This document shows positions 23,101 through 38,989 of a DNA stretch of 64,000 nt, piece after piece. The stretch lies in assembly GCA_965263355.1 (NCBI GenBank), contig CBDHHL010000056.1:1472001-1536000 (forward strand). The letters run 5' to 3'. Every line of letters begins with the position of its first letter. Position 1 is the first letter of the stretch. This DNA is from Leptolyngbyaceae cyanobacterium. Its GTDB lineage: Bacteria; Cyanobacteriota; Cyanobacteriia; Phormidesmidales; Phormidesmidaceae. The position numbers and the translations under genes are program-made. Below the pieces are notes generated by a model that searched no databases, was not told the DNA's origin, and worked only from the letters and a program-made list of their open reading frames with translations.

Positions 23101-23116
23101 TGTGATCTCACTCACA
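23101..23116. promoter_or_regulatory. CRP (SyCRP1)-type site
   Basis: Perfect TGTGA-N6-TCACA, 20 bp upstream of TATAGT (23137-23142). Confidence 0.7.
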
Positions 23117-23148
23117 AACTAAGAAAAATTGATGGCTATAGTAAGGGA

Positions 23149-23290
23149 GTTCGAGATTACAACTTAACTACACCCGTGTAAATCACACTGGAGTAGCGTA
23201 GTCTCATAGACAACACCCTCTATAATTTAACTCTCTATATCTAAACCGAAGCCCTCCATGCGCATTAGTGTTTGGGGGGCTTCTTATATT
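23149..23290 (+). ncRNA. Candidate sRNA A1
   Basis: Upstream promoter, 5' stem-loops, CTCATAGACAA, TATATCTAAACC and terminator GAAGCCCTCCA...TGGGGGGCTTC; paralog at 23437-23627; ends estimated. Confidence 0.6.
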
Positions 23291-23388
23291 CAAGAGAAAT
23301 CAGCGTCGTCAGGAAAAATTAGTAGTCTCTATTAATAACACTATATTTCGTTCTAAGTTCTGACATCCAGCGTAAAGAGTCCCCATGC

Positions 23389-23404
23389 TGTGATCATCGA
23401 CACA
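23389..23404. promoter_or_regulatory. CRP-type site (one mismatch)
   Basis: TGTGA-TCATCG-ACACA followed by the same CTAAGAAAAATTGA block as copy A1. Confidence 0.6.
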
Positions 23405-23436
23405 CTCTAAGAAAAATTGACGCTTATGTAAGCAGA

Positions 23437-23627
23437 CATTAGGGTTACGTTCTCAGGAGATGTACTTACCTCATCTCAGCGTATGGTGAACTCATAGACA
23501 AAAACGCTATTGCATAACTTCCTATCACGAACCCTATACCTAAGTAGACAGAATACTGTATTACTTAACCCCTTATATCTAAACCAAAGTCCCGATAATC
23601 GTTAGCGGTTACCGGGACTTCATATAT
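23437..23627 (+). ncRNA. Candidate sRNA A2 (paralog of A1)
   Basis: CTCATAGACAA (23491-23501), TATATCTAAACC (23574-23585), terminator AAGTCCCGATAATCG-TTAG-CGGTTACCGGGACTT; ends estimated. Confidence 0.6.
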
Positions 23628-23905
23628 GGCACATAACCCTATCATTACATGAGTGCCCATTGCAGACTCCGCTAATCACCCCTGAGTTCCTACTTCTGTA
23701 ATCTAGATGCCTATCTAACCATAATTTTCCGGCTTAAGTTCGGACCTTTTTTAGCTAAGAATTTTCCAAATCTGGAAACATTATAATCATGACATAGTAA
23801 ACGGTGAGCAGCAACACAACAGAATGGAATGAAGATCACAAAACTCTCATTGGAATTGATTGCGAGACGATTGTTTCTATTGATAACAATTTAATTCCCT
23901 CTCTC

Positions 23906-23933
23906 GCCTCTACTAACATGGTAGAGGCTTTTT
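23906..23933 (+). terminator. Intrinsic terminator (+ orientation)
   Basis: GCCTCTAC-N7-GTAGAGGC-TTTTT. Confidence 0.7.
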
Positions 23934-23939
23934 CTTAAA

Positions 23940-25535
23940 CTATGCCTCAAACTGCCAACGAGCCATTAACTCTCGTAACCGATAGAATGCCTCTTTAGGA
24001 CGCAGCTTTTCGTCAAGCAACCCACCAAATGGCCAAAATACCCCTGCTTGGTCTGAAAAATCCCACCAAGAAACAGCTTGAATTGCAGGCTTACTATAGC
24101 AAAGGGTATAAAACTGCTCTAACCAATCGGCCTGAATCTCTTCACTCCAGGGAGCATGCCAGAGACCTCGCGTTTCCTTCAGAAAAGAATCCTCATCGGT
24201 ACCCGTTGCTGACGACACGCCTAGCTCAGTGATGTGAATCGGTTTACCCAACTGACTAAACCGATCTAAGAGACGATCAATTTCAAACATATCTTGCTGC
24301 GGATAGTAGAGCTGTAAGCCAATGATCTCGAAGGGAATCTCGGCTGCCAGACAAGCTTTAAGATATTGATAAGGGCTCCTTGATGGCCAATTCGTATCAT
24401 AGGCAACTCGCTCAGCCCAGGGACAACAACTATTGAGAAGTCGTTTTACCTCAGGAAAACCAGCTGCAGCAGCGCGCACGGCAACATTAGTAATTTCCAG
24501 AAATTGTTCAGGAGAGTAACCCAACTGATTAGCAAAACGGATACCGTTTCCCTCATTAACAACATCGTAATAGGGAATGCGGCTTTGGTAGTGAGCTGTA
24601 ATATCTCTTACCCGTCGCTGGATATGGTCAAGCACTACATTATAAGGTTTAGGGCGCAACCAGTTGGGGATACCAATTTCATGAAACCAGACTAGGGGGT
24701 GCCCCTTAGGTATAATACTGGCCTGCGATAACCACTTAACAGCATCATTCACTTTCCCATAGTTAGGTTTGCCTGCTTCAGCTTCAACCTGTCGCCAATA
24801 AAAGGGTACGGTGGCAAAGTTAAACAATTCCTGAAAACGATGGTTGTACTTATCACCTGCCTGGGGATAGCGAAAAAAGTTACACCCCCATAGAAAATCT
24901 GGCCGTAATGGCTGATATTGAATTTGTTGTTGAGCCTTAGCAACAGCAGCTTCTTCCCCTGCCCATAAACTTTCCACCAATGATTCATTACACCAACTGG
25001 CCATAGCAAAATCAGTATCGGCAGACTCTGCCTTTTGTAAGGCAGTTCTGGCTTTACCTAAACGTGCCTCAATCTTGTGGGAAAATAAAAAGCCACTGGT
25101 TTGCCAATGCTGTAGAGTATTTTTAACCCGATGTAGACGCGACTGGGCAAATGCCAGATTAAGATTTAGGGGGCAATTTTCTGGGGTATAGCCTAATCCC
25201 TGATTATCGGCATATAACGTGACTTCACCAAAGCCTTTTACCGGCAAGCGTAGGGCCACCATAAAAGGGATCGTAGCTGGCGGTTCGGACCATAGACTAC
25301 CTGTCTCAACCTGGCGCATTGGATTGGGTAAAGGCTCGTCCTGCAAATCTAAAAAATACAGCTGATTAAAGGTCTTAGTCCCTAAGGGATGACCGTCTGG
25401 TAACCAGGCCTGAAATAAACAGTTATTGCTCTCAGATGGCAATCTTTGTGCGCTTGAAGAAAGGGTGGTTGCTACCATGGCGATACCACCAGTCAACTGT
25501 AAAAAAGTTCGTCGTTCCATAGTCATTGCTCTCAT
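23940..25535 (-). CDS. GH10 glycoside hydrolase (endo-1,4-beta-xylanase-like), Tat-exported
   Basis: ERRTFL twin-arginine signal; KGHPLVW, YDVVNE acid/base and IHITELG nucleophile motifs. Confidence 0.88.
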   Translation of the reverse strand: MRAMTMERRTFLQLTGGIAMVATTLSSSAQRLPSESNNCLFQAWLPDGHPLGTKTFNQLYFLDLQDEPLPNPMRQVETGSLWSEPPATIPFMVALRLPVKGFGEVTLYADNQGLGYTPENCPLNLNLAFAQSRLHRVKNTLQHWQTSGFLFSHKIEARLGKARTALQKAESADTDFAMASWCNESLVESLWAGEEAAVAKAQQQIQYQPLRPDFLWGCNFFRYPQAGDKYNHRFQELFNFATVPFYWRQVEAEAGKPNYGKVNDAVKWLSQASIIPKGHPLVWFHEIGIPNWLRPKPYNVVLDHIQRRVRDITAHYQSRIPYYDVVNEGNGIRFANQLGYSPEQFLEITNVAVRAAAAGFPEVKRLLNSCCPWAERVAYDTNWPSRSPYQYLKACLAAEIPFEIIGLQLYYPQQDMFEIDRLLDRFSQLGKPIHITELGVSSATGTDEDSFLKETRGLWHAPWSEEIQADWLEQFYTLCYSKPAIQAVSWWDFSDQAGVFWPFGGLLDEKLRPKEAFYRLRELMARWQFEA

Positions 25536-26043
25536 CTCTCTCCTAATCTTTTAGACAGCACAAACCACACCCCTGGCCTCAATGTCAGGTTTTTTTTAAG
25601 CCACCAGGATAACTCACAGAGAGTGCCCTGACTCGGTAAAGATTCGCGGCGAAACTGCCCCTCAAGACGTTGCACTAATGTAGGCCGCTGACCAGCCATT
25701 AGCATAGAAACAGGTGTTTGTAGACCGCAACCGTTATCCTGAACAGTCAAAAAATAGTACTCGTCAGACAGTTTCCCAATCGCTTTGATACGAGTTGTCC
25801 CCACGACATGTTTACCTCGGTGCAACGGTCGGTGCAATGGATTCAGAATAAACTTCAAGTGATAGCAATTCTGGCAGGTCCACAGGGGGTGACGAAGTTT
25901 TTACAGACGTGTAAAGAACAGGATCTAGCCAGTCTGGCGTGTGTTGATTGGGCTAGGGGGAAGTCTCTCTACTGAGTTTGATGTGGAAGATGCAGTTTAC
26001 CCGATATTTCAAACGCGATTGCCCCGAATGGGGCTACTAAACC
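25532..26043 (-). pseudogene. 3' remnant of a sensor histidine kinase (HATPase end, CHASE2-kinase-like)
   Basis: RDFP, GKHVVGTTRI, LTVQDNGCGL, GQFRRESLPSQGTLCELSW; stops and frameshifts upstream; cut at the IS end. Confidence 0.6.
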
Positions 26044-26548
26044 GGCACTGGTTCCGCATGACGGGATTCCGTAAAGCCTCTTTATACATAGCTTAGGGGA
26101 TAATAGACTCACTAAAACGAATGTGTCTATCTGGGGTGTTATGGACCTACTATTATCGCATCGGTGTCCATTGTGTGGGGAAGAAGAATCGGTTCAGGTT
26201 CATAGTCGGTATCCCACGAAGAGCAATGGTATGCGAACAATCTATCGTTGCCGTTATTGTGACATCTACTACAGTGAAACCTTTGGTAGTGCGGACGACG
26301 TAATGCGGCCTTTCGGCGTAAAACCAATCCCTATGCGAAAGCTCAAAAGCATTTGCAACGAACCTTGGAGGTCTTTTGGTTAATCCACAACTTTGTGCGG
26401 GTCCATTTCACCACCAAACAGGTACCTGCTGTCCGCATAGGGATTTTGGAAAAGGGACTCTCATGGTCACAGTTGTTATCGATTCGATATGCTGTTTAAC
26501 TATTATCACGCAAAGGATATAGACTTCCCATCTGACGGAACCAGTGTC
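26044..26548 (+). mobile_element. Internally deleted IS1-family-like element (505 bp)
   Basis: Terminal inverted repeats GGCACTGGTTCCG..GACGGGA / TCCCATC..CGGAACCAGTGTC; N-terminal Zn ribbon CPLC..YRCRYC..YSET joined to C-terminal HNFVRVHFTTKQVPAV..GILE.GLSW. Confidence 0.8.
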
Positions 26549-26550
26549 GG

Positions 26551-26772
26551 CTCAGAGTTGTTGCTAATAAAGATTGTCTTGATAACAATCCTGCGGCTAG
26601 GCGTTGGTTTGAACTAGTTCAAGTATCGGTTGCAGTCATGAACAAGCAAAGCTTACAGGTTTATGAAGGGGCTGATAGTGAAGAAGAGGTTATCCGCTAG
26701 GTTCAGGAGTGGACTGTAGCTAATCAAGACCTGCTTGATAGTTAGTTGGCTGATGCAAAAATAGCTTTTTAG
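26551..26772 (+). pseudogene. 3' remnant of glycine betaine/proline ABC substrate-binding protein (ProX-like)
   Basis: LRVVANKDCLDNNPAARRWFELVQVSVAVMNKQSLQVYEGADSEEEVIR*VQEWTVANQDLLDS*LADAKIAF*; two internal stops; starts right at the IS end. Confidence 0.75.
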
Positions 26773-27829
26773 AAGAGATAGATCTTCAGTATTTAGAACA
26801 TGCCTTCATTCATTGTTGTCACTCTGTTTACCCATTTGAATGACAAACACGTGGTATGTATGACTGGGTATTACTGCGGGAAAGGAGACTCTAACGTAGA
26901 CATAGTGATTGACCTTATTTGATGCCTGTGCATGTTCTTTAATAAGGTTTTTGACAAGTCACTTGAGGTTGTTGAAATGTAAGGTTTTTTTGAAGAATCA
27001 GCTACACATTAAAAAGCTACTGTAAACAGTTCATACTTTACATACATTTTTTCACAGCGATGTTTTATCTATCTTGCATACCTAATAATTAGGTTTATTA
27101 CTTAGGATAATTAGGTCTATTACGTAGAAAGAAGTATGTGCTTCATCTGATATATTCAGCAAATGTATACACATTGTGAAAGCATTGTGAAAGTCATCAG
27201 CGTGTATCTAGCTATCGGGAGGTGAGTCTGTCGTAATGAGTGATTTGGCAATACTAAATGCGTAAAAATGCGGCTTAAGTTAAGCATCTTTGAAGCCTAA
27301 GCTGCTTAACTTAAGGGCCCTCAATGATTGCACCTGGCAAATGCACAAGCCACACTAAACTGCAACCGTTATATAGTTGAATTTATTGGTTTTGTAATAG
27401 GAAACTATTTTTAGAAATTCGAAGTCTATAAATCAAACAGGTCAGTTATCAATACAGTGTTTTTTCGGTTTTTTCGTAAAGGCTGTTTGATTGTGGCAGT
27501 AGTAATAACGATGACAGTGTGGAAGCGCTTATCTGGTCATGTTTGGGGACTATATTGATTCTGCTAATTGGGTACTAGAGGGCTCGTCTCATCGGTTCTT
27601 TATTATCTGATTAAGTTTAGTCGATGAGTTAGGGCCAGCCACGGAGAGGGGATAGCTTCGGTGGTATAACACTATAAGAATAGTTGTTCAAGTGTTATCT
27701 CCTTTCACTGTCAGTCTTTTGGTTGATAGGTAGGTTGTTTCTTTTGTAGAACATTGAATGACGCTTCTTGTCTTCAGCCTTAGTTGTGAGTGTTTTGTAT
27801 TAGTAGTAAGGTAGCCTTCTAGAAAAATC

Positions 27830-28672
27830 ATGCAATACCAAGCATCAGTCGTCTCTTCAGGCCAAAAAATAAAGGAATCCTATTCAAGTTTATCGACTCT
27901 GGCTACCAGCAAAGCTGCTACAGTCAATATTCTGGATGTTGAAATTGACAACCTTACTCGAGAAGAGCTGTTAGCGCGTTTAGATGCCGATGGTGGAGTT
28001 GTTGTGACTCCTAATGTAGATCATTTGATGAAGCTTCAGCATGATGCGGAGTTTCGTGAGGTGTATGATGCTGTCGACTTTCGTGTCTGCGACAGTAAAA
28101 TCTTGATGTACGCAGCACAGTTTTTGGGCACGCCAATTTGTGATAAGATCTCGGGCTCTGATTTATTGCCCTGGTTCTGTGATTACCATCGCAACAATCC
28201 TGAAGTCAAAATTTATATGCTGGGTGCGGCTCCTGGAGTTGCCAAGCTAGCTCAACAGCGCATTAATCAGCGAATTGGTCGCGAGATTATTGTTGAGGCG
28301 CACTCGCCCACATACGGCTTTGAGAAAAGTCCTGAAGAATGTGAAGCAATTGTGGACCATATTCGTGCTTCATCCGCTAATGTACTTGTGGTTGGTGTTG
28401 GAGCACCCAAACAGGAGAAGTGGATTGTCAAGCACAGAGAGAAGCTACCCAACATTAAAACGTTTTTGGCAGTTGGTGCAGCGATTGACTTTGAGGCCGG
28501 TCATAAGCCTCGTTCTCCTGAGTTTGTCACTGACCTTGGTTTGGAGTGGCTATATAGAACCATGTCTGAGCCCAAACGGTTGTGGAAGCGTTATTTGATT
28601 GAAGATATGCCTTTCTTCGGCTTAGTGTTTCAGCAGTGGTTGGCTGCTAGAAAGTCTGGCAAATCAGCATAA
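27830..28672 (+). CDS. WecB/TagA/CpsF-family glycosyltransferase
   Basis: VVTPNVDH, ISGSDL, VGVGAPKQEKWI, VGAAIDF, GLEWLYR..EPKRLWKRY. Confidence 0.93.
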   Translation: MQYQASVVSSGQKIKESYSSLSTLATSKAATVNILDVEIDNLTREELLARLDADGGVVVTPNVDHLMKLQHDAEFREVYDAVDFRVCDSKILMYAAQFLGTPICDKISGSDLLPWFCDYHRNNPEVKIYMLGAAPGVAKLAQQRINQRIGREIIVEAHSPTYGFEKSPEECEAIVDHIRASSANVLVVGVGAPKQEKWIVKHREKLPNIKTFLAVGAAIDFEAGHKPRSPEFVTDLGLEWLYRTMSEPKRLWKRYLIEDMPFFGLVFQQWLAARKSGKSA

Positions 28673-28740
28673 GACTTGGGCATCTGGTAGTTTGAAGGCT
28701 ACAACTATCTGCTGGCGAAGTCCACAAGCTATTACTATCG

Positions 28741-28777
28741 GAGCCCTTGGATGTTTTAATCATCTGGGGGCTTTTTT
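28741..28777 (+). terminator. Intrinsic terminator
   Basis: GAGCCCTTGGATG...CATCTGGGGGCTTTTTT. Confidence 0.65.
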
Positions 28778-28868
28778 AAGTTAAGTCCTGCTTAAAAACG
28801 ACATCCCCCATGGGATGACAGGGGACAGTTAAACAAGGAACCTTACCGTTCCCTTTGTATTCTTTGCA

Positions 28869-30035
28869 TTGGCTATGGGACAGACAGCAAAAAATATTGG
28901 CATTATTGGTGGCGGCCAGTTGGCTTGGATGATGGCTCATGGGGCCAAAAAACTGGGTTTGAGCTTGACTATACAAACTCCCAATCAGTCAGATCCCGCT
29001 GTTACTATCGCTGATCACTTGGTCTTGGGGGCAGTAGCTGATACTCAGGCAACCGCAAAACTGGCGACTCAGTGTGATGTCATCAGCTTTGAAAATGAGT
29101 TTATCGATCTCCATGCCCTAAAAATCCTTGAACAGCAAGGTACTCAGTTTTACCCTGAACTACGCTGTTTAGAACCTTTATTGGATAAGTACGATCAGCG
29201 CCTCTACTGCCAGTGTCTGGGGCTGCCATCTCCAAAGTTTGCCACCTTAGATTCAGAGGCTGACTTATCTAAGCTAGAAGCAAGTGTTGCTGCGGTAGGT
29301 TTGCCGTTGGCGCTTAAAACGCGTCGCCATGGCTATGACGGTCAAGGTACCTTTATCTTGAAAGATCTGGATACGGTGCGGATGACTTGGTCACAGTTGG
29401 GATATCAGCCTATTTTGCTAGAGACGTTTGTCTCCTTTGAACAAGAACTAGCGATTATGGCAGCACGCTCCCAAACGGGAGAAATCGCGCTATATCCTGT
29501 GGTCGAATCCCAACAAATCGACCAGGTTTGTCGCCGAGTAATTGCACCTGCTGATATTAGCGACGAAGTCCAGCAACAGGTTGCTCACATAGCCACTACT
29601 CTGCTGACTAGATTGGATGTTGTCGGGATTTTTGGTATCGAATTATTTTTAACCGCTGACAACCAGGTCTTGATCAACGAAATTGCTCCACGTACTCATA
29701 ACTCAGGCCACTATACCCTCGATGCTTGCGTGACATCGCAGTTTGAACAACAGCTGCGGGCAGTCAGTGGATTATCCCTGGGACCAGCTGAACTCAGATG
29801 CTCCCAGGCAGTGATGGTTAATTTGCTTGGCTTTGAAACGGCTACCTCAGACTATGAAGCTAAACGGGAGGCTTTATCAGCACTGCCGAATGTCCATCTC
29901 TATTGGTACGGCAAAACCGAATCTCGTCCAGGAAGAAAACTAGGTCATGTGACAGTGACATGCGATCGCATCCTCAGCCGACATGAACTCAACCAATTAA
30001 TTCAGCAGGTGGAGACTCTTTGGTATGCCGAGTAG
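28869..30035 (+). CDS. purK: N5-carboxyaminoimidazole ribonucleotide synthase
   Basis: IGIIGGGQLAWM, GYDGQG, NEIAPRTHNSGH, SQFEQQLRA, RPGRKLGHV. Confidence 0.96.
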   Translation: MAMGQTAKNIGIIGGGQLAWMMAHGAKKLGLSLTIQTPNQSDPAVTIADHLVLGAVADTQATAKLATQCDVISFENEFIDLHALKILEQQGTQFYPELRCLEPLLDKYDQRLYCQCLGLPSPKFATLDSEADLSKLEASVAAVGLPLALKTRRHGYDGQGTFILKDLDTVRMTWSQLGYQPILLETFVSFEQELAIMAARSQTGEIALYPVVESQQIDQVCRRVIAPADISDEVQQQVAHIATTLLTRLDVVGIFGIELFLTADNQVLINEIAPRTHNSGHYTLDACVTSQFEQQLRAVSGLSLGPAELRCSQAVMVNLLGFETATSDYEAKREALSALPNVHLYWYGKTESRPGRKLGHVTVTCDRILSRHELNQLIQQVETLWYAE

Positions 30036-30241
30036 GGGGTTGCCCTTGTCCACGTCCAGGCCTGTAGTTTTGCCGTAGAGGAAACGCTAGGTTTCAACTC
30101 GGATGTGGTTTACCCTAAACCCTCCCTCCCTACATTTTTGAGTTCTATTTGAAATAATGATTGAGGTGGGGGAAATCGCTCAATCATCCCTATCGATCAA
30201 CCCCTGTCGATTTACCAGGACAGTTAGTTATGATGACTCTA

Positions 30242-30423
30242 GTTTCACTACGGCGTTGGTGACTGCCAACAATGTTTCTTGATCTATGCTTTTCACTTAA
30301 GGGCATCGAACAGATCCGCGGTGGCAGTATACCGGGCTTGTACCCGGAAACTTTAAACCGCGACTACGGGCCCACCTGGATTTTCCAGGTCAAAAACTGA
30401 GGTAAGACGGCGTTGCGGTGAAA
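30242..30423 (+). ncRNA. ssrS: 6S RNA (SsaA)
   Basis: About 180 nt whose ends pair (GTTTCACTACGGCGTT / GACGGCGTTGCGGTGAAAC); TATGAT -10 at 30229; typical cyanobacterial location downstream of purK. Confidence 0.88.
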
Positions 30424-30436
30424 CTTTTAAGATTTG

Positions 30437-30469
30437 AAAAGCTCTTGGTCTGTAGATCAAGAGCTTTTT
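30437..30469 (+). terminator. Terminator after 6S RNA
   Basis: AAAAGCTCTTG-N10-CAAGAGCTTTTT. Confidence 0.8.
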
Positions 30470-30533
30470 GCTGTGAGGGCGCACAATCCGGTAATATTAT
30501 TGATATTGTTAATGGGTACAAATATACTATCCC

Positions 30534-31010
30534 ATGGTTCAATACACGATTCCCCAAAGTCCTGAAGATGTATTGATTACCGTTTCTGGGCGTGATTCGG
30601 CTAAAGCCCGTGAAAAGGCAATGGATCAGCTGCTGGAAATGATGGGCGATGGTAAGCTAACGGCTGATTTAGATGACGGCTTTACCCCAAAGGATTTTAT
30701 TGAAGTGAAAGAACAAAAGACAGAGCCCACGGCTGAGGAAAACGCAATTGTTGATGCAGTCCAGGTTTTGAGTAACTTGGCAAACCTCAAGGTTAAGGTG
30801 CAGGGCTCCCGTAATGAAGCCCTAAAGGTCAGAGAATTGGTCGATCTACTCTTTACAGATGATGTTATCGAAGAAGAGCAGCTAGAGGAGTTAAAGAACG
30901 GCTTTAAGGTGCTCAAAACCTTTGCCCAAAGTAACCTGCGTTACCGTGATGCCCGTGCACAGGCAGAAGAAGCTCGTAAAGTTTTAGACGAGGCGCTGGG
31001 TAATGCTTAA
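30534..31010 (+). CDS. Conserved cyanobacterial hypothetical protein
   Basis: Long ORF with native codon usage; GRDSAKAREKAMDQL motif, helical. Confidence 0.75.
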   Translation: MVQYTIPQSPEDVLITVSGRDSAKAREKAMDQLLEMMGDGKLTADLDDGFTPKDFIEVKEQKTEPTAEENAIVDAVQVLSNLANLKVKVQGSRNEALKVRELVDLLFTDDVIEEEQLEELKNGFKVLKTFAQSNLRYRDARAQAEEARKVLDEALGNA

Positions 31011-31567
31011 GGGTAGAGCCGATCTCGATCGTTATCAATAAAGTAAAGTCGCCCATGGCCAGCAATGTGAGATTGTGGCTGGTCGCCCTCTGGGATAGCC
31101 GTAATCCTAAAGATATAGATCCCGTCAAGCCGAGGATTGCGCCGTGGGCGTAAGCCAATAGTTACTAGTCTGCCTGGAGCAACGGGTGGATCAAATTCCA
31201 CTGTGACGGCTTTGGTGTCTTCGTTGATAAAAACATTACCCAAGCCTAATGCGCTTTTCTCCTCTCCAGGTATTTCTGCAAATGCGACGGTTTCCTCTAA
31301 ACGATAGGACGTGAGATGGCGAGTCAGATTTTGTGGCTCAATAACAACTGTCTGCAGTGGCGCATCTGCATTAGTAGGTAGATCGAGGCTAAAGAAATAA
31401 GTGGCATTGCGCCGCATAACGTAGTCTTCTGTGGTGAATGCATCGAGAAATTGAGGCGGTTGTAAAAATGCCGTTGTGCCATTGGCTAATTCAACGGCTT
31501 GGGCGGTAACGGTAAGGGCAGCTACAGTGCCGATTGATAAAGGTAGGCTTAACCATTTGGCTTTCAT
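31007..31567 (-). CDS. Secreted DUF2808-like protein
   Basis: Signal peptide; GTTAF..PP, FDPPVAPG, RNPR..GIY.F, G.GRL.F. Confidence 0.8.
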   Translation of the reverse strand: MKAKWLSLPLSIGTVAALTVTAQAVELANGTTAFLQPPQFLDAFTTEDYVMRRNATYFFSLDLPTNADAPLQTVVIEPQNLTRHLTSYRLEETVAFAEIPGEEKSALGLGNVFINEDTKAVTVEFDPPVAPGRLVTIGLRPRRNPRLDGIYIFRITAIPEGDQPQSHIAGHGRLYFIDNDRDRLYP

Positions 31568-31698
31568 GACTTAGTGCTCTAATGTGGATACCCCTATTTT
31601 GAAAAATTTTCTTTGAATTGTGGGGATAAGCTGATAGGACCAAGGCTGATAATTTGGGGTGGCAGCCATAATAGGGAATAGTTTGGGGGTTCCATAGG

Positions 31699-34224
31699 TT
31701 GAGTATGATGATGAATAACGGCCCTGAATTATTAGCGCCTGCTGGGACCTGGGACTGTGCTAAGGCGGCAGTGGAAAATGGGGCCGATGCGATTTATTTT
31801 GGTCTGGATCGGTTTAATGCGCGGATGCGATCGCAAAACTTCACCGAGTCAGATCTCCCTGACTTCATGGCCTTTCTCCATAGCCGTGGCGTCAAGGGGT
31901 ATGTCACATTTAATACCCTGATTTTCCCCAGCGAGTTGGCCGCTGCAGAGCGCTACCTGCGTACCATGATTGCGGCTGGAGTGGATGCCGCTATTGTTCA
32001 GGATGTGGGCATGTGTCGTCTGATCCGTCATTTATCGTCTGATTTTCCCATCCATGCATCTACCCAGATGACCGTCACCTCAGCAGCCGGTGTAGAGTTT
32101 GCAAAAAGTCTCGGAGCCCAGTTAGTCGTGCTGGCGCGAGAATGTTCTCTGAACGACATTGAGAAAATAAATCAACAAACAAAAGAGATTGCATTACCAC
32201 TAGAAGTGTTTGTTCACGGGGCCCTATGTGTTGCTTATTCCGGCCAGTGTCTCACCAGTGAATCTCTCGGCGGTCGGTCTGCCAATCGAGGTGAATGTGC
32301 CCAGGCCTGCCGTATGACCTACGATATGAAAGTTGATGGAGAACCTATCGATCTAGGAGACAAGCAATATCTTCTCAGTCCTCAAGACCTTTCGGGGTTA
32401 CCTATTTTGCCAGACTTAATTAAGTCTGGGGTGAGCTGTTTAAAAATAGAAGGGCGGCTTAAAGCACCGGAATATGTGGCTAATGTCACCCGTGTCTATC
32501 GACAGGCACTCGATCGGACATTGCAGACTGTTGTACCTGTTGCTATACCAGAAAACTCTTCTCTTAAGCTGGGCAATCGACCGATTTCATATCAGCCGAC
32601 GGCAGATGAACGCTACAACCTGGAAATGGCCTTTTCCCGTGGTCTCTACACTGGCTGGTTCCGGGGCATCAATAATCAGGAGCTAGTCCATGGCCGGTTT
32701 GCTAAGAAACGCGGTGTTTATCTAGGGGATGTAGTACGGGTCACCAAACAGCAGGTGGAGCTACAGGTTAATGGGCCAGTCAAGGCTGGGGACGGCATTG
32801 TGTTTGATTCTGGACACCCTGATACGGACCAGGGAGGACGGATTTATGGGGTGGAAGCTCGGGGGCGTACGGTCTGTTTGAGTTTTGCTAAGCATGGTAT
32901 TGATTTGCAGCGGATAAAACCGGGGTATAAGGTTTGGAAAACCTCTGACCCAGAGCTGGAGAAGACATTACGCCAAAGCTACAGTAGTGAGCAGCCTCGG
33001 GTGCGGCAGCCCATTGATATTGAGGTCCATGGGGAGGAGGGGGCCTCAATGGTTGCGATCGCAACCGATTCCCAGGGCCATATTGCCAGAGACACGTCTG
33101 AAAAAATTTTAGAGTTAGCGCGTAAGCAACCACTCACAACAGAACGATTAGAACAACAGCTTGGACGATTAGGAAATACGCCTTTTAAGCTAGGAAACTT
33201 GACGAATCATCTGGCTGAGGGGTTGATTTTACCGGTGAGCGAGTTGAATCGCTTACGGCGATCACTGGTAAAGCAATTATTGACGCAACGGGAACGGCCA
33301 CGGGTTTGGGCATTGGCTACAGAGCGGTCCTATGGGGATTTGTTGCCGGGTTTGGGTAGTGAAGGGGCAACTCAACCTACGTTGATTCCGCTGGTACGTA
33401 ATTTTGACCAACTCCGGACAGTATTAGAAATTGGGGTCATTACGGTGTATTGCGAGCTAGAAAATCCGGTACAGTATCGCGATGCGGTGGCACTGACGCG
33501 AGCCCTGAATCCTTCGGCAAAGCTTTATGTCGCGCCGCCGCGCATTACGAAACCGGGAGAGCAATATATTCTCAAGCAGGTGCGTCAATCAAATGCGGAT
33601 GGATATTTGGTGCGTAATTATGACCATCTAACATTTTTTGCGGATCAGCCCTGTATTGGTGACTTTTCACTGAATGTGGCAAATCCGATTACGGCGGATT
33701 ATTTTAAGCAGGCGTTTAGCCTAGAACGGCTGACGGCTAGCTATGACTTGAATGTGGCTCAGCTTTTGGATTTGCTAGAAACAACACCGGCTAGCTGGTT
33801 TGATATTACGGTGCATCAACATATGCCAATGTTCCATATGGAGCACTGTGTATTCTGTGCGTTTTTGTCAGACGGAACGGACTTTACGAACTGTGGGCGG
33901 CCCTGTGAAACCCATGAAGTGGTGTTATGCGATCGCACCGGTACAGAACATGTTCTCCAAGCTGACGCTGGCTGTCGTAACACGCTTTATAACGGTGTTG
34001 CCCAAACTGGTGCAGAATTTATTCCTCGTCTGATTGACCATGGAGCCCATCACTTTCGGATTGATTTTCTCAACGAAACACCGCATCAAGTCCAACAGAT
34101 TCTCGATTATTACCAACAGCTCCTCCAAGGGAAAATCACCGGGCGTCAACTTTGGCAAACCCTAACGATATCTAATCAACTAGGCGTTACCCGTGGCACT
34201 CTAGAAAACCGTAGATCAATATGA
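31699..34224 (+). CDS. Peptidase U32-family protein with DUF3656 (RlhA-like RNA hydroxylase)
   Basis: PELLAPAG, HASTQM, EVFVHGALCVAYSGQC, NRGECAQACR, LKIEGRLK; actual start probably an ATG at 31705-31711. Confidence 0.9.
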   Translation: MSMMMNNGPELLAPAGTWDCAKAAVENGADAIYFGLDRFNARMRSQNFTESDLPDFMAFLHSRGVKGYVTFNTLIFPSELAAAERYLRTMIAAGVDAAIVQDVGMCRLIRHLSSDFPIHASTQMTVTSAAGVEFAKSLGAQLVVLARECSLNDIEKINQQTKEIALPLEVFVHGALCVAYSGQCLTSESLGGRSANRGECAQACRMTYDMKVDGEPIDLGDKQYLLSPQDLSGLPILPDLIKSGVSCLKIEGRLKAPEYVANVTRVYRQALDRTLQTVVPVAIPENSSLKLGNRPISYQPTADERYNLEMAFSRGLYTGWFRGINNQELVHGRFAKKRGVYLGDVVRVTKQQVELQVNGPVKAGDGIVFDSGHPDTDQGGRIYGVEARGRTVCLSFAKHGIDLQRIKPGYKVWKTSDPELEKTLRQSYSSEQPRVRQPIDIEVHGEEGASMVAIATDSQGHIARDTSEKILELARKQPLTTERLEQQLGRLGNTPFKLGNLTNHLAEGLILPVSELNRLRRSLVKQLLTQRERPRVWALATERSYGDLLPGLGSEGATQPTLIPLVRNFDQLRTVLEIGVITVYCELENPVQYRDAVALTRALNPSAKLYVAPPRITKPGEQYILKQVRQSNADGYLVRNYDHLTFFADQPCIGDFSLNVANPITADYFKQAFSLERLTASYDLNVAQLLDLLETTPASWFDITVHQHMPMFHMEHCVFCAFLSDGTDFTNCGRPCETHEVVLCDRTGTEHVLQADAGCRNTLYNGVAQTGAEFIPRLIDHGAHHFRIDFLNETPHQVQQILDYYQQLLQGKITGRQLWQTLTISNQLGVTRGTLENRRSI

Positions 34225-34365
34225 CATTTGTGACTTAGATCACGTATCGAACGAATTGATATTGATGGCAAACCAGGTAAATTTTGTGGCTTAGAATACT
34301 TTTTTGATGACTCCAATTAATAAAGTAACGCTGTTTATCACGTCACTTTCAAAAGCACTTGATAT

Positions 34366-34440
34366 CAATAAATAACCCCGACATTATTGCCGGGGTTGTT
34401 TACACATAGTTGGTTTCATATAAGGTGTGCCTCAAGCACA
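34366..34440 (-). ncRNA. Candidate sRNA B1 (~75 nt)
   Basis: TACATT -10 (34446-34451), 5' hairpin TGTGCTTGAGGCACA, TATATGAAAC and TATGTGTAAAC, terminator ACCCCGGCA..TGTCGGGGT-TATTTATT. Confidence 0.65.
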
Positions 34441-34759
34441 TGTTCAATGTAATTAATTTCTGCCCCTAGCACCGTAAATACCCTATAAACTTGCTTGAAG
34501 AGTGGCTAAAGTTAGTTATTTCCTTGCTTATGCTAGCCTTGAAAGGCTGACTTATAAAGGGTTTCTCACAATGACTTGTAAATGAATCAAATTTATTTTT
34601 TATGAATTCATGGTCAACGCTAAGTGTCGTTATTGTGACTTAAATCACTTATTGGAACGACTTCAATTAATGTAATCTTTCATAAGTTACGCATTTAGGT
34701 TTGACCATAAATGCACTACATATAGTATTTATCAAACTTCGTGAATTAGGATTTAAACC

Positions 34760-34834
34760 AAATAAATAACCCCGACATTGCTGCCGGGGTGGTTTAAACA
34801 TAAGGTGTTTATATAGAGTGTGTTGCAAGAACAC
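34760..34834 (-). ncRNA. Candidate sRNA B2 (paralog of B1)
   Basis: TGGCTACATT -10 region, 5' hairpin TGTGTT-CTTGC-AACACA, TATATAAAC and TATGTTTAAAC, same terminator. Confidence 0.65.
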
Positions 34835-35053
34835 AACCAATGTAGCCAATTTTTAGGCACATCACCGTAAAACCACCATAAAATCCCTTAAAGAGAACCT
34901 AAAGAGAATGAATTTAGGTTGGCTGATGATTTATCCATTGAATTGAGAAACGTTGGCGACGTAAAAATCTACAGACGCTAGAAGCCTATTTCCTGAAGCT
35001 TTCGAATGTTTCTCCTTAGTCCTTATGTCTTCCCTTTGATTGGCAATGTTTAA

Positions 35054-35404
35054 TCAGCCAAAGGTTCTGCCATTCCAGCCCCACATAGCACCGTCAGCGT
35101 CGGCAAATTCAATGTAGGTACGATCAGCAGGAACGCCTAAGGCTGACTGGACCTGGGCACAAAATTCCTGGCTCATTGTTTTGGTTTTGTTGCCCATGGT
35201 GCCAACGCTTTTGATTTCAATGTAGCAGGTTGGATCAGTGCTACCCCCAAAGGTCATGGGAGTACTGGGTTGAAATGCGGTCATTACGTAGGACTCTGGT
35301 TTGCCGATGTGCTTTGCCAAGCTAGCCGACAGCTGCTTAAGCATGTCTTCTACAGCACCTTTTGAAGGCGCATCAACTGATGTCTGAACTTTAATTAACG
35401 GCAT
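35054..35404 (-). CDS. MIF-family (phenylpyruvate tautomerase-like) protein
   Basis: N-terminal Pro, GKPESYVM, MTFGG, IKSVG, WGWNG.TF. Confidence 0.92.
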   Translation of the reverse strand: MPLIKVQTSVDAPSKGAVEDMLKQLSASLAKHIGKPESYVMTAFQPSTPMTFGGSTDPTCYIEIKSVGTMGNKTKTMSQEFCAQVQSALGVPADRTYIEFADADGAMWGWNGRTFG

Positions 35405-37856: not shown

Positions 37857-38459
37857 ATGTCTAATTTTATCGACTCAGATTTTGTTGCACTGCATAGCCA
37901 ACATGTTCTCCAGTATGCTGATTGGATGAGCATTTCTGATCTTGCAAAGGCTGAGAATGTCTCCGAATGTTTTGATGCTTGGGATTTTGAAGATTTTCTA
38001 GGACTGGCAGTTTATTTGTTCGTTACTACTCAGTCTCAAGGTACTCGCGAAAAGCTGTCTCAGCTATTACCCAAGTTTGGTAGTGCGGCTGTTTTGCCAC
38101 TACTTAAAATTCTTGGTAGAAAAGAGACTTTCGCTAAGAAAAACATTCCCATGTTGGCACAGCACAGCCTGAATAACATGGCTCCCTACCCCTTAGCAAT
38201 TGGGCTAAATCAGGTATTAGAACAAAAGGCCCAGAATGACTTGACAGTAGTTGCATTACAGAGGCTAAGGCAGCTCCTACAGTCGTGTGAACCATCTACT
38301 TGCTTAGTGTTGTCTCAACTTATCTCAGATGCTAATTGGCAATTAGTGTCTGAGGTTGCAGTCTCCAAGTTGCCAACTTATGCGCTAGCTAATCGTAAAC
38401 AGCATAAACGTAGTTCTGAAGGCGCTGTGCTAGAGCATAGAGCTGTTCAGTGTGTGTAA
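37857..38459 (+). CDS. Hypothetical helical protein (HEAT-like)
   Basis: LLPKFGSAAVLPLLKIL HEAT-like segment; 200-aa ORF. Confidence 0.6.
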   Translation: MSNFIDSDFVALHSQHVLQYADWMSISDLAKAENVSECFDAWDFEDFLGLAVYLFVTTQSQGTREKLSQLLPKFGSAAVLPLLKILGRKETFAKKNIPMLAQHSLNNMAPYPLAIGLNQVLEQKAQNDLTVVALQRLRQLLQSCEPSTCLVLSQLISDANWQLVSEVAVSKLPTYALANRKQHKRSSEGAVLEHRAVQCV

Positions 38460-38737
38460 CCCTTGACTTTGTCAAAACTCTCCCTGGTTTATCGACAAAT
38501 GAACGTCATTGATTACAAGCATACCAGGAGTGCCTGAACGCTATCTAGCTGAGCCCTACACGTTGCTCAAAGCATTTCTGAGATGGGCTGAGTAAAGTAG
38601 TTAACGGGCATCACAATACTCCCGATTAAACATGGATCAGTCCGTGGGGGCAGTCTCTGGTTCGTAGCCATAGAAAAGGGGCCGAAGCCCCGATAAACTA
38701 GTAGAACTCATAGGCGTAAGCCACAAGTCTAGTTTTC

Positions 38738-38989
38738 CTAGGCCGCGCAACCAAACAAACTATCCAAGTAGAGTCTGTTCACATGGGGCTGATTCGCACC
38801 ATTTTGCATCAAAAAGAGAGAAAGCGCAGCCTGCATCACCCGCTCCTGACTCCAGAGTTCATGAGTATTCAAATACTCCTGAATAGAAATATGTAGGGAT
38901 TCAGGAATCTCGATCATCAGACTAACGGTGGTGGGTGCGGTAGTAACAGAAGGCATAGAGATAACCTTTTTAAAAGAAAGGACAGACAC
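38738..38989 (-). CDS. DUF2811-like protein
   Basis: EIPESLH..YL..H..WSQ.RV..AALSLFLMQNG...YLDSLF; start probably the ATG of MPSV. Confidence 0.8.
   Translation of the reverse strand: MSVLSFKKVISMPSVTTAPTTVSLMIEIPESLHISIQEYLNTHELWSQERVMQAALSLFLMQNGANQPHVNRLYLDSLFGCAA

Follow-up and report, generated by a model that had tools for sequence, protein, structure and literature searches.

Predicted small RNAs with a repeated UAU motif form a multi-copy, apparently undescribed family in Leptothoe/Nodosilinea-type cyanobacteria

Two loci about 11 kb apart in a 64,000-nucleotide stretch from a Leptolyngbyaceae cyanobacterium (GenBank assembly GCA_965263355.1, contig CBDHHL010000056.1, positions 1,472,001 to 1,536,000; hereafter the window) carry four short non-coding units, two on each strand. 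As judged from sequence, these units are members of one paralogous family, and the family appears to be a widespread, strongly expanded and hitherto undescribed group of small-RNA genes of Leptothoe/Nodosilinea-type cyanobacteria. Each predicted RNA bears repeats of a short UAU-containing element and ends in a stable hairpin. The build of the RNAs suggests decoys and that of the promoters control by two factors.

A family of repeat-bearing RNA genes

A sequence-only reading of the window had proposed a multi-copy small-RNA system marked by the motif TATRTNTAAAC in front of a terminator stem. The motif is indeed found at all four positions and strands listed, and a stable hairpin follows each occurrence within 1–3 nt. 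A terminator scan missed the hairpins of units 1 and 2, whose U-tails are weak; the four predicted RNAs fold with z-scores of −2.9 to −5.4. The window holds four matches to the motif, compared with a shuffle mean of 0.21 and none of 100 shuffles reaching four, although this surprise is overstated because the pattern was derived from those same four sites.

As a family signature the exact 11-mer fails. It is carried by only 33 of the 95 members that we collected, and it is not enriched in the genome of Leptothoe kymatousa, the closest named relative by its U32 peptidase (81% identical), where it occurs 13 times versus 14 for a reversed control. The conserved element is shorter, YYUAU-N3/4-(U/G)AA, and is repeated 13–15 nt apart. 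A second repeat lies 11–19 nt upstream of the last (mode 13–15) in 79 of the 95 members, compared with 78 of 665 control positions; the members were chosen by the pattern of the last repeat plus a stem, and this pattern misses some copies, unit 2 included. The four RNAs of the window have two to five repeats each. UAU and AA are constant and the three central bases differ among paralogues. A pyrimidine-rich run precedes each UAU, and the repeat-bearing stretch is poor in G (fraction 0.12).

Three other readings of the motif were dropped. A small peptide is not indicated, as no common reading frame was found among the 40 of the 95 members examined. Mimicry of a −10 element is at odds with the invariant positions, which do not match TAnnnT. 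Finally, the motif might have been the U-tail of a terminator on the opposite strand; the models score much lower on the reverse strand and the promoters point in the stated direction.

Units 1 and 2 at locus 1 represent type A and units 3 and 4 at locus 2 represent type B. The two loci had been described as otherwise dissimilar, which is wrong: the repeated element and a stem built from a C-run and a G-run are common to both. Copies that combine the motif of type A with the stem of type B, found by a relaxed pattern, bridge the two, and 40 diverse copies can be aligned through two repeats and the stem. In this joint alignment, the structure of which was drawn by us from the same sequences, 99.6% of stem cells are paired and two-sided change is seen in 4 of 6 pairs, above all slid controls. 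The type A hairpin alone has two-sided change at 8 of 12 pairs. Of the proposed small-RNA system, then, what stands is one multi-copy non-coding family with conserved promoters and terminators and no match in Rfam.

The DNA of locus 2 matches 26 and that of locus 1 matches 24 of the 150 genomes in a sample of the Leptothoe/Nodosilinea family. Type B occurs as one to four tandem copies, placed behind a MIF-family gene in the closest relatives. A type A model found copies in all five genomes tested (5, 7, 9, 12 and 17), dispersed, clustered and on small contigs; long type A RNAs have mostly 4–5 repeats and short ones 1–2. A joint covariance model (R3) recovers the four units of the window, all of which had been used in its training. 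With 31 candidates scored per genome, R3 gave 256 matches in 72 of the 150 family genomes, 27 of which had supplied training rows. Among 39 named genomes it was positive in six: L. kymatousa and P01_G01_bin.38 (both used in training), Nodosilinea sp. AN01ver1, Phormidium tenue FACHB-1052 and Leptolyngbya sp. FACHB-60 as new finds, and one doubtful case. With 119 candidates scored in each, the other 33, including Nostoc, Calothrix, Fischerella, Chamaesiphon and Pseudanabaena, gave nothing. Model R1 alone was positive in 2 of 46 named genomes.

Beyond the family sample, R3 was positive in 10 of 151 genomes of a class-wide sample, seven of them from outside the family sample. Four of these make up a second family, labelled Elainellaceae at family rank by one source and positive in 4 of 4 genomes; in it, two tandem copies and an HU-like gene are arranged divergently (L336, L343, L348). 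An order sample containing Leptothermofonsia had 2 positives among 41. Matches in G186 (E 0.0026) and G267 were set aside as possible plain terminators; they lie directly behind stop codons and have no promoter. A strict pattern run on 401 genomes of the phylum matched five, with only two matches, both in G001, resembling members and about 26 matches in the control; it is insensitive, because it recovered only 2 of the 8 copies in G001. Viral contigs gave no match in one search and one in another, the latter not confirmed by the model, and a plasmid collection gave none. In G035, one 20-mer similar to the relaxed pattern is present in 16 identical copies, probably as part of another repeat.

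Promoters, feature map and neighbouring genes

All four CRP-type boxes of the sequence-only reading (Table 1) are present and fit TGTGA-N6-TCACA with at most one mismatch. Their relation to transcription is best seen in type A. In 24 copies selected by box and terminator, without use of the −10 element, TAnnnT lies 77–79 nt behind the box in every copy, compared with 0–4% in other 3-nt windows and 42% in one. The spacer between box and −10 varies in sequence and is constant in length. This spacing puts the predicted starts at 23206 and 23494 and the centre of the box at about −97.5. In described cyanobacterial CRP promoters the −10 lies about 22 bp behind the box (PMC2633013), a distance kept in only 2 of the 24 copies, one of them unit 1. 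A class II CRP promoter with a start near 23149 was dropped for the same reason. The CRP boxes are, on this comparison of copies, not close-in promoter elements.

Type B promoters consist of four TTYA repeats spaced 10–11 bp and ending near −35, followed by TAnnnT. Three spaced repeats plus a −10 were found in 45 of 72 type B-like copies versus 0 of 2160 shuffles. The build is reminiscent of OmpR/PhoB-type sites. A literature search for the factor binding the ~11-bp repeats gave no usable consensus, and RpaA, RpaB, SphR and CcaR are leads only. Among the 41 type B copies, 14 have an upstream CRP-like box, at 252–255 nt before the stem in nine and at 140–141 nt in four. From these fixed offsets, the box at 34634 is assigned to unit 3 (centre near −202), unit 4 has none, and the box at 34229 is without a copy. 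Part of the earlier claim thus holds, namely boxes at fixed spacing to some of the copies; the idea of two boxes driving two RNAs at each locus is not supported at locus 2, where unit 4 is boxless and the box at 34634 lies ~200 nt upstream of unit 3.

Over all members, a CRP-like box is found upstream of 50 of 95, compared with 0.13 per 330 nt in the window. Copies of the Nodosilinea group mostly have the box at a fixed distance, and no CRP-like box was seen at copies of the second family. The relatives G001, G095, G120 and G344 encode a CRP-type regulator with a RETV-R recognition helix that matches solved CRP-family proteins. From the spacing of the boxes and the presence of this regulator in relatives, an input from cyclic AMP (cAMP) is likely at type A copies and at some of the others, with CRP as a helper and not as the core activator.

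Table 1. Predicted elements at the two loci, in window positions
Feature	Position	Strand	Details
CRP-type box, perfect	23101..23116	+	Centre about −97.5 from predicted unit 1 start; consensus from PMC2633013
Conserved upstream promoter block, box to variable spacer	23117..23160 (limits approximate)	+	Consensus line; ~11-bp spaced repeats by eye; contains TAnnnT 20 nt behind the box, common to only 2/24 copies
Predicted −10 of unit 1	23194..23199	+	TAnnnT at the type A distance from the box
Unit 1, predicted short type A RNA, ~85 nt	23206..23290	+	Ends inferred; two repeats (23220-23231, 23235-23246); terminator hairpin 23248-23283
CRP-type box, 1 mismatch	23389..23404	+	Centre about −97.5 from predicted unit 2 start
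Predicted −10 of unit 2	23482..23487	+	Fixed box spacing
Unit 2, predicted long type A RNA, ~135 nt	23494..23628	+	Ends inferred; five repeats starting at 23507, 23522, 23534, 23558, 23573; middle hairpin 23541-23567, terminator hairpin 23587-23620
Probable gene-less remnant of secreted repeat-protein cassette	23803..23935	+	Promoter-like block, then terminator; blocks in G065
CRP-type box, no RNA copy behind	34229..34244	.	1 mismatch; some relatives have a further RNA copy at fixed distance behind the equivalent box
Unit 3, predicted type B RNA, ~74 nt	34366..34439	-	Ends inferred; 5´ hairpin; repeats 34423-34413, 34409-34398; terminator 34397-34374
Unit 3 promoter	34446..34510	-	Four TTYA repeats, 11/10/11 bp (34510-34474); −10 at 34451-34446
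CRP-type box, 1 mismatch	34634..34649	.	Centre about −202 from predicted unit 3 start
Unit 4, predicted type B RNA, ~73 nt	34760..34832	-	Ends inferred; repeats 34816-34807, 34803-34792; terminator 34790-34769
Unit 4 promoter	34839..34903	-	Four TTTA repeats, 11/10/11 bp (34903-34867); −10 at 34844-34839; no CRP box upstream
MIF/tautomerase-family gene	35054..35404	-	Landmark of synteny; in many relatives it lies upstream of the type B array

Type A copies often adjoin genes for a multi-copy secreted protein with internal repeats (e.g. L199:8648-9157 (-), L135, L144, L202, L408). The protein scores below cut-off for every NCBIfam family, and the Atlas clusters that it matches at 0.9 or more are all unnamed. 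Its genes have a highly conserved promoter of the same build: in 21 of 23 upstream regions, a CRP box of their own stands at a fixed distance and ~11-bp repeats come after it; the −10 lies 92 nt from the start of the box (one case, counted by hand) versus 93–95 nt in type A. In G065 (L407, L408) a block like that at 23803-23935 precedes secreted repeat-protein genes, and a similar terminator stands behind one of them. The window block is probably the remnant of such a cassette from which the gene has gone. This fits better than PsrR1, for which 23850-23932 scores 26.7 bits against a cut-off of 42.

The loci of the window are flanked by genes of the MIF family, a U32 peptidase, a response regulator and GH10. 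In relatives, genes for CP12, DUF2811 and RRM proteins recur near clusters of copies. Type A clusters at L196, L197, L199, L200 and L201 occur with CP12 paralogues bearing an N-terminal extension, with DUF2811 genes and with a homologue of the window gene 37857-38459; in G035 and G095 these clusters adjoin CRISPR-like repeats and cas-like genes (by eye, from translations). The unnamed 200-aa gene and the DUF2811 gene at 37857-38989 in the window form a pair that is likewise found near type A clusters in relatives. RRM genes stand beside copies in G035, G095, G098 and G020, and single-RRM genes are found next to RNA copies or in between them at L197:12056-14008, L200:11453-13310, L153 and L110. 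Elsewhere in the window, a 6S RNA gene (30242-30425, +; 98.9 bits) directly follows a purK-like gene, halfway from one locus to the other, and short overlapping frames at 26121-26400 resemble insertion-sequence fragments by eye.

Possible functions of the RNAs

The reading that we favour, and to which we give an even chance, is that these are co-regulated, redundant RNAs acting as decoys for a single-strand RNA-binding protein. Repetition within and between the RNAs, the variable centre and the free change in repeat number are what would be expected of a dose-dependent decoy, and a variable centre between fixed UAU and AA is more easily reconciled with a protein that contacts particular bases than with an uninterrupted seed. 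The sequence-only reading had offered a shared seed or a protein-titrating site; internal repetition and the variable centre tend to favour the latter. According to this model, the four units would be transcribed independently into RNAs of about 70–135 nt. A factor of the response-regulator type would bind the ~11-bp repeats, with cAMP-CRP assisting from upstream at part of the copies, such that one signal could induce many copies jointly with the secreted repeat-protein genes of the same promoter build. Each RNA would then bind several protein molecules and draw them off their mRNAs, the dose being set by gene copy number and repeat number. Single-RRM Rbp proteins are our leading guess for the partner, and a tentative one. 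In Bacteroides, an RRM protein is reported to bind a 14-member small-RNA family (PMC11697453).

Several observations weigh against decoys. The same report describes the Bacteroides RNAs as acting by base-pairing, with the RRM protein opposing them (PMC11697453). The predicted unpaired probability is only 0.61 on average for the last repeat and 0.54 for the preceding one, with 39 of 95 members above 0.7. The element is not in excess at mRNA ends (starts, 5 sense vs 3 antisense; stops, 4 vs 3; 518 genes), and all 3 matches to its tandem form in five genomes are RNA copies. Linkage to RRM genes is sparse, with 3 of 38 RRM matches in five genomes within ~1.2 kb of a copy and none in G001, G114 and G120, besides a single case in each of G098 and G020, and probably reflects two independent arrangements. 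Type B stems compared among themselves have two-sided change in 0 of 9 pairs, and the member counts given above are counts of related sequences, not of independent events.

The main rival reading, redundant base-pairing regulators in the manner of FopS, NsiR1 and Yfr1, is rather unlikely in our estimate. Here, the pyrimidine run and UAU would pair with purine-rich ribosome-binding sites and start regions, and the repeats would offer several registers. The run before each UAU recalls the C/U-rich stretches of Synechocystis small RNAs, multi-copy pairing families are known (FopS, NsiR1), and the Hfq-type chaperones of cyanobacteria are either absent or unable to bind RNA, so partners may be few and specific. 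However, the seed centre differs among paralogues, and the four RNAs paired with 450 of 518 start regions no better than with coding windows, and no better than 12 shuffled versions of themselves did, in tests that covered about 860 kb, about a tenth of one relative's genome, and ignored accessibility; specific targets may have gone unnoticed. The start regions of four neighbouring genes ranked from the 19th to the 88th percentile, and the top matches were G-rich windows. It is improbable, too, that these transcripts serve as decoy substrates of RNase E or another ribonuclease, or that cleavage at the repeats turns them into short, stable 3´ hairpin RNAs. RNase E sites are A/U-rich stretches by a stable stem, and the A/U-rich, G-poor stretch directly before the hairpin would fit; the element is nevertheless stricter in conservation and spacing than cleavage sites usually require.

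The remaining alternatives deny the RNA a role of its own. The units could be leader modules, or “actuatons” as described in Synechocystis (PMC5386190), in which a regulated promoter and a leaky terminator tune read-through and the RNA does little in trans. The weak U-tails of units 1 and 2 and the secreted repeat-protein gene that often comes next on the same strand are in line with this. We nonetheless consider it distinctly improbable: that gene has a CRP-box promoter of its own, what comes after each window unit is another copy, a remnant or a convergent gene, downstream neighbours vary widely among relatives, and tandem arrays of up to four copies would make no sense as leaders. A selfish or neutral DNA repeat, copied with neighbouring DNA and without RNA function, could account for up to 17 copies that are clustered, on small contigs and often duplicated together with a neighbouring gene. 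It is very improbable given that the promoter spacer changes in sequence and not in length, that stem pairing is kept, and that two distinct promoter builds feed the same RNA body; moreover, the type B array is retained beside the same gene across many genomes, and no shared transposase was found among 105 scanned proteins, 98 of them neighbours in relatives.

If the decoy model holds, the family would be of use beyond its own regulation. No CsrA, ProQ or RNA-binding Hfq is present in cyanobacteria, whose regulatory RNA-binding proteins are known in only a few cases; decoy-like RNAs would be a ready bait with which to name the partner protein and its binding site. The family occurs in cultured strains (L. 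kymatousa, Nodosilinea sp. AN01ver1, P. tenue FACHB-1052 and Leptolyngbya sp. FACHB-60). In addition, the promoter, with its upstream CRP box and four ~11-bp repeats, outlines an unnamed regulon in common with an uncharacterised family of secreted proteins.

Comparison with known RNAs

A search of the whole window with Rfam 15 returned only 6S RNA; the best scores of the units were far below the cut-offs, and 16 loci of relatives gave no match. A keyword search of the literature, with most subscription journals outside its scope and without comparison by sequence, found no description of the family. As the sequence-only reading had stated, the signatures of Yfr1 and Yfr2 are absent: by eye, the four predicted RNAs have neither the unpaired ACTCCTCACAC motif of Yfr1/SyR5 nor the 5´ GTGAGGA start and GAAACA loop motif of Yfr2, which also gave no Rfam match. 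Type B copies have a 3´ hairpin similar to that of PsrR1 (RF02701), but only model positions 48-79 match, at 17.1 and 14.7 bits against the cut-off of 42, and the conserved 5´ part is lacking. CsiR1, PmgR1/Ncr0700, NsiR4, IsaR1 and other abundant Synechocystis small RNAs, inspected by eye in two supplement lists, have no repeated unit before the terminator. Type III antitoxin RNAs have repeats and a terminator directly upstream of the toxin gene; no shared downstream gene of that kind was found among the scanned neighbours.

Closer parallels exist in gene organization. NsiR1 has tandem paralogues in cyanobacteria, as is the case here (PMC6596454). It is located upstream of hetF in heterocyst formers under NtcA/HetR, whereas neither this context nor its motif was found here, and the heterocyst formers among the 39 named genomes had no model match. 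Yfr2, likewise a family of paralogues, is described in one to nine copies (PMC6596454), with motifs that differ from ours. Even if base-pairing were the true mode of action, the present family would thus be among the most highly expanded cyanobacterial small-RNA families known to us. Trichodesmium has very abundant RNAs from tandem copies; these are about 260 nt long, derive from repeats of 736–973 bp and were reported without similarity elsewhere, and we compare them by description only (PMC4143802).

The FopS RNAs of Bacteroides, in a phylum without classical RNA chaperones, comprise 12–15 dispersed paralogues of 65–70 nt per genome and are bound by the RRM protein RbpB (PMC11697453). The family described here is likewise rich in paralogues, with 5–17 type A copies in 5 of 5 genomes. 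FopS has one 5´ seed and represses near start codons, whereas here the element is repeated, its centre is variable and the phylum is another. CsrB/CsrC and RsmX/Y/Z are redundant RNA genes with a repeated short motif, a 3´ terminator and promoters under two-component control. The redundancy of genes, the internal repetition and the 3´ terminator are the same in our family. The motif differs, being GGA in hairpin loops in the Csr/Rsm RNAs and UAU-N3/4-(U/G)AA here, and the four predicted RNAs are free of GGA in their 5´ parts. Targets of CsrA-type systems share the motif, unlike the mRNA ends examined here. CsrA itself is reported missing in cyanobacteria (PMC12475003). It is conceivable, though we hold it only as a possibility that is more doubtful than not, that a Csr/Rsm-like switch has arisen independently in these organisms, in which up to about 20 redundant decoy RNAs per genome, controlled by cAMP and a two-component system, would titrate a single-RRM or new RNA-binding protein through UAU-N3/4-UAA, within a regulon that also includes the secreted repeat-protein family.

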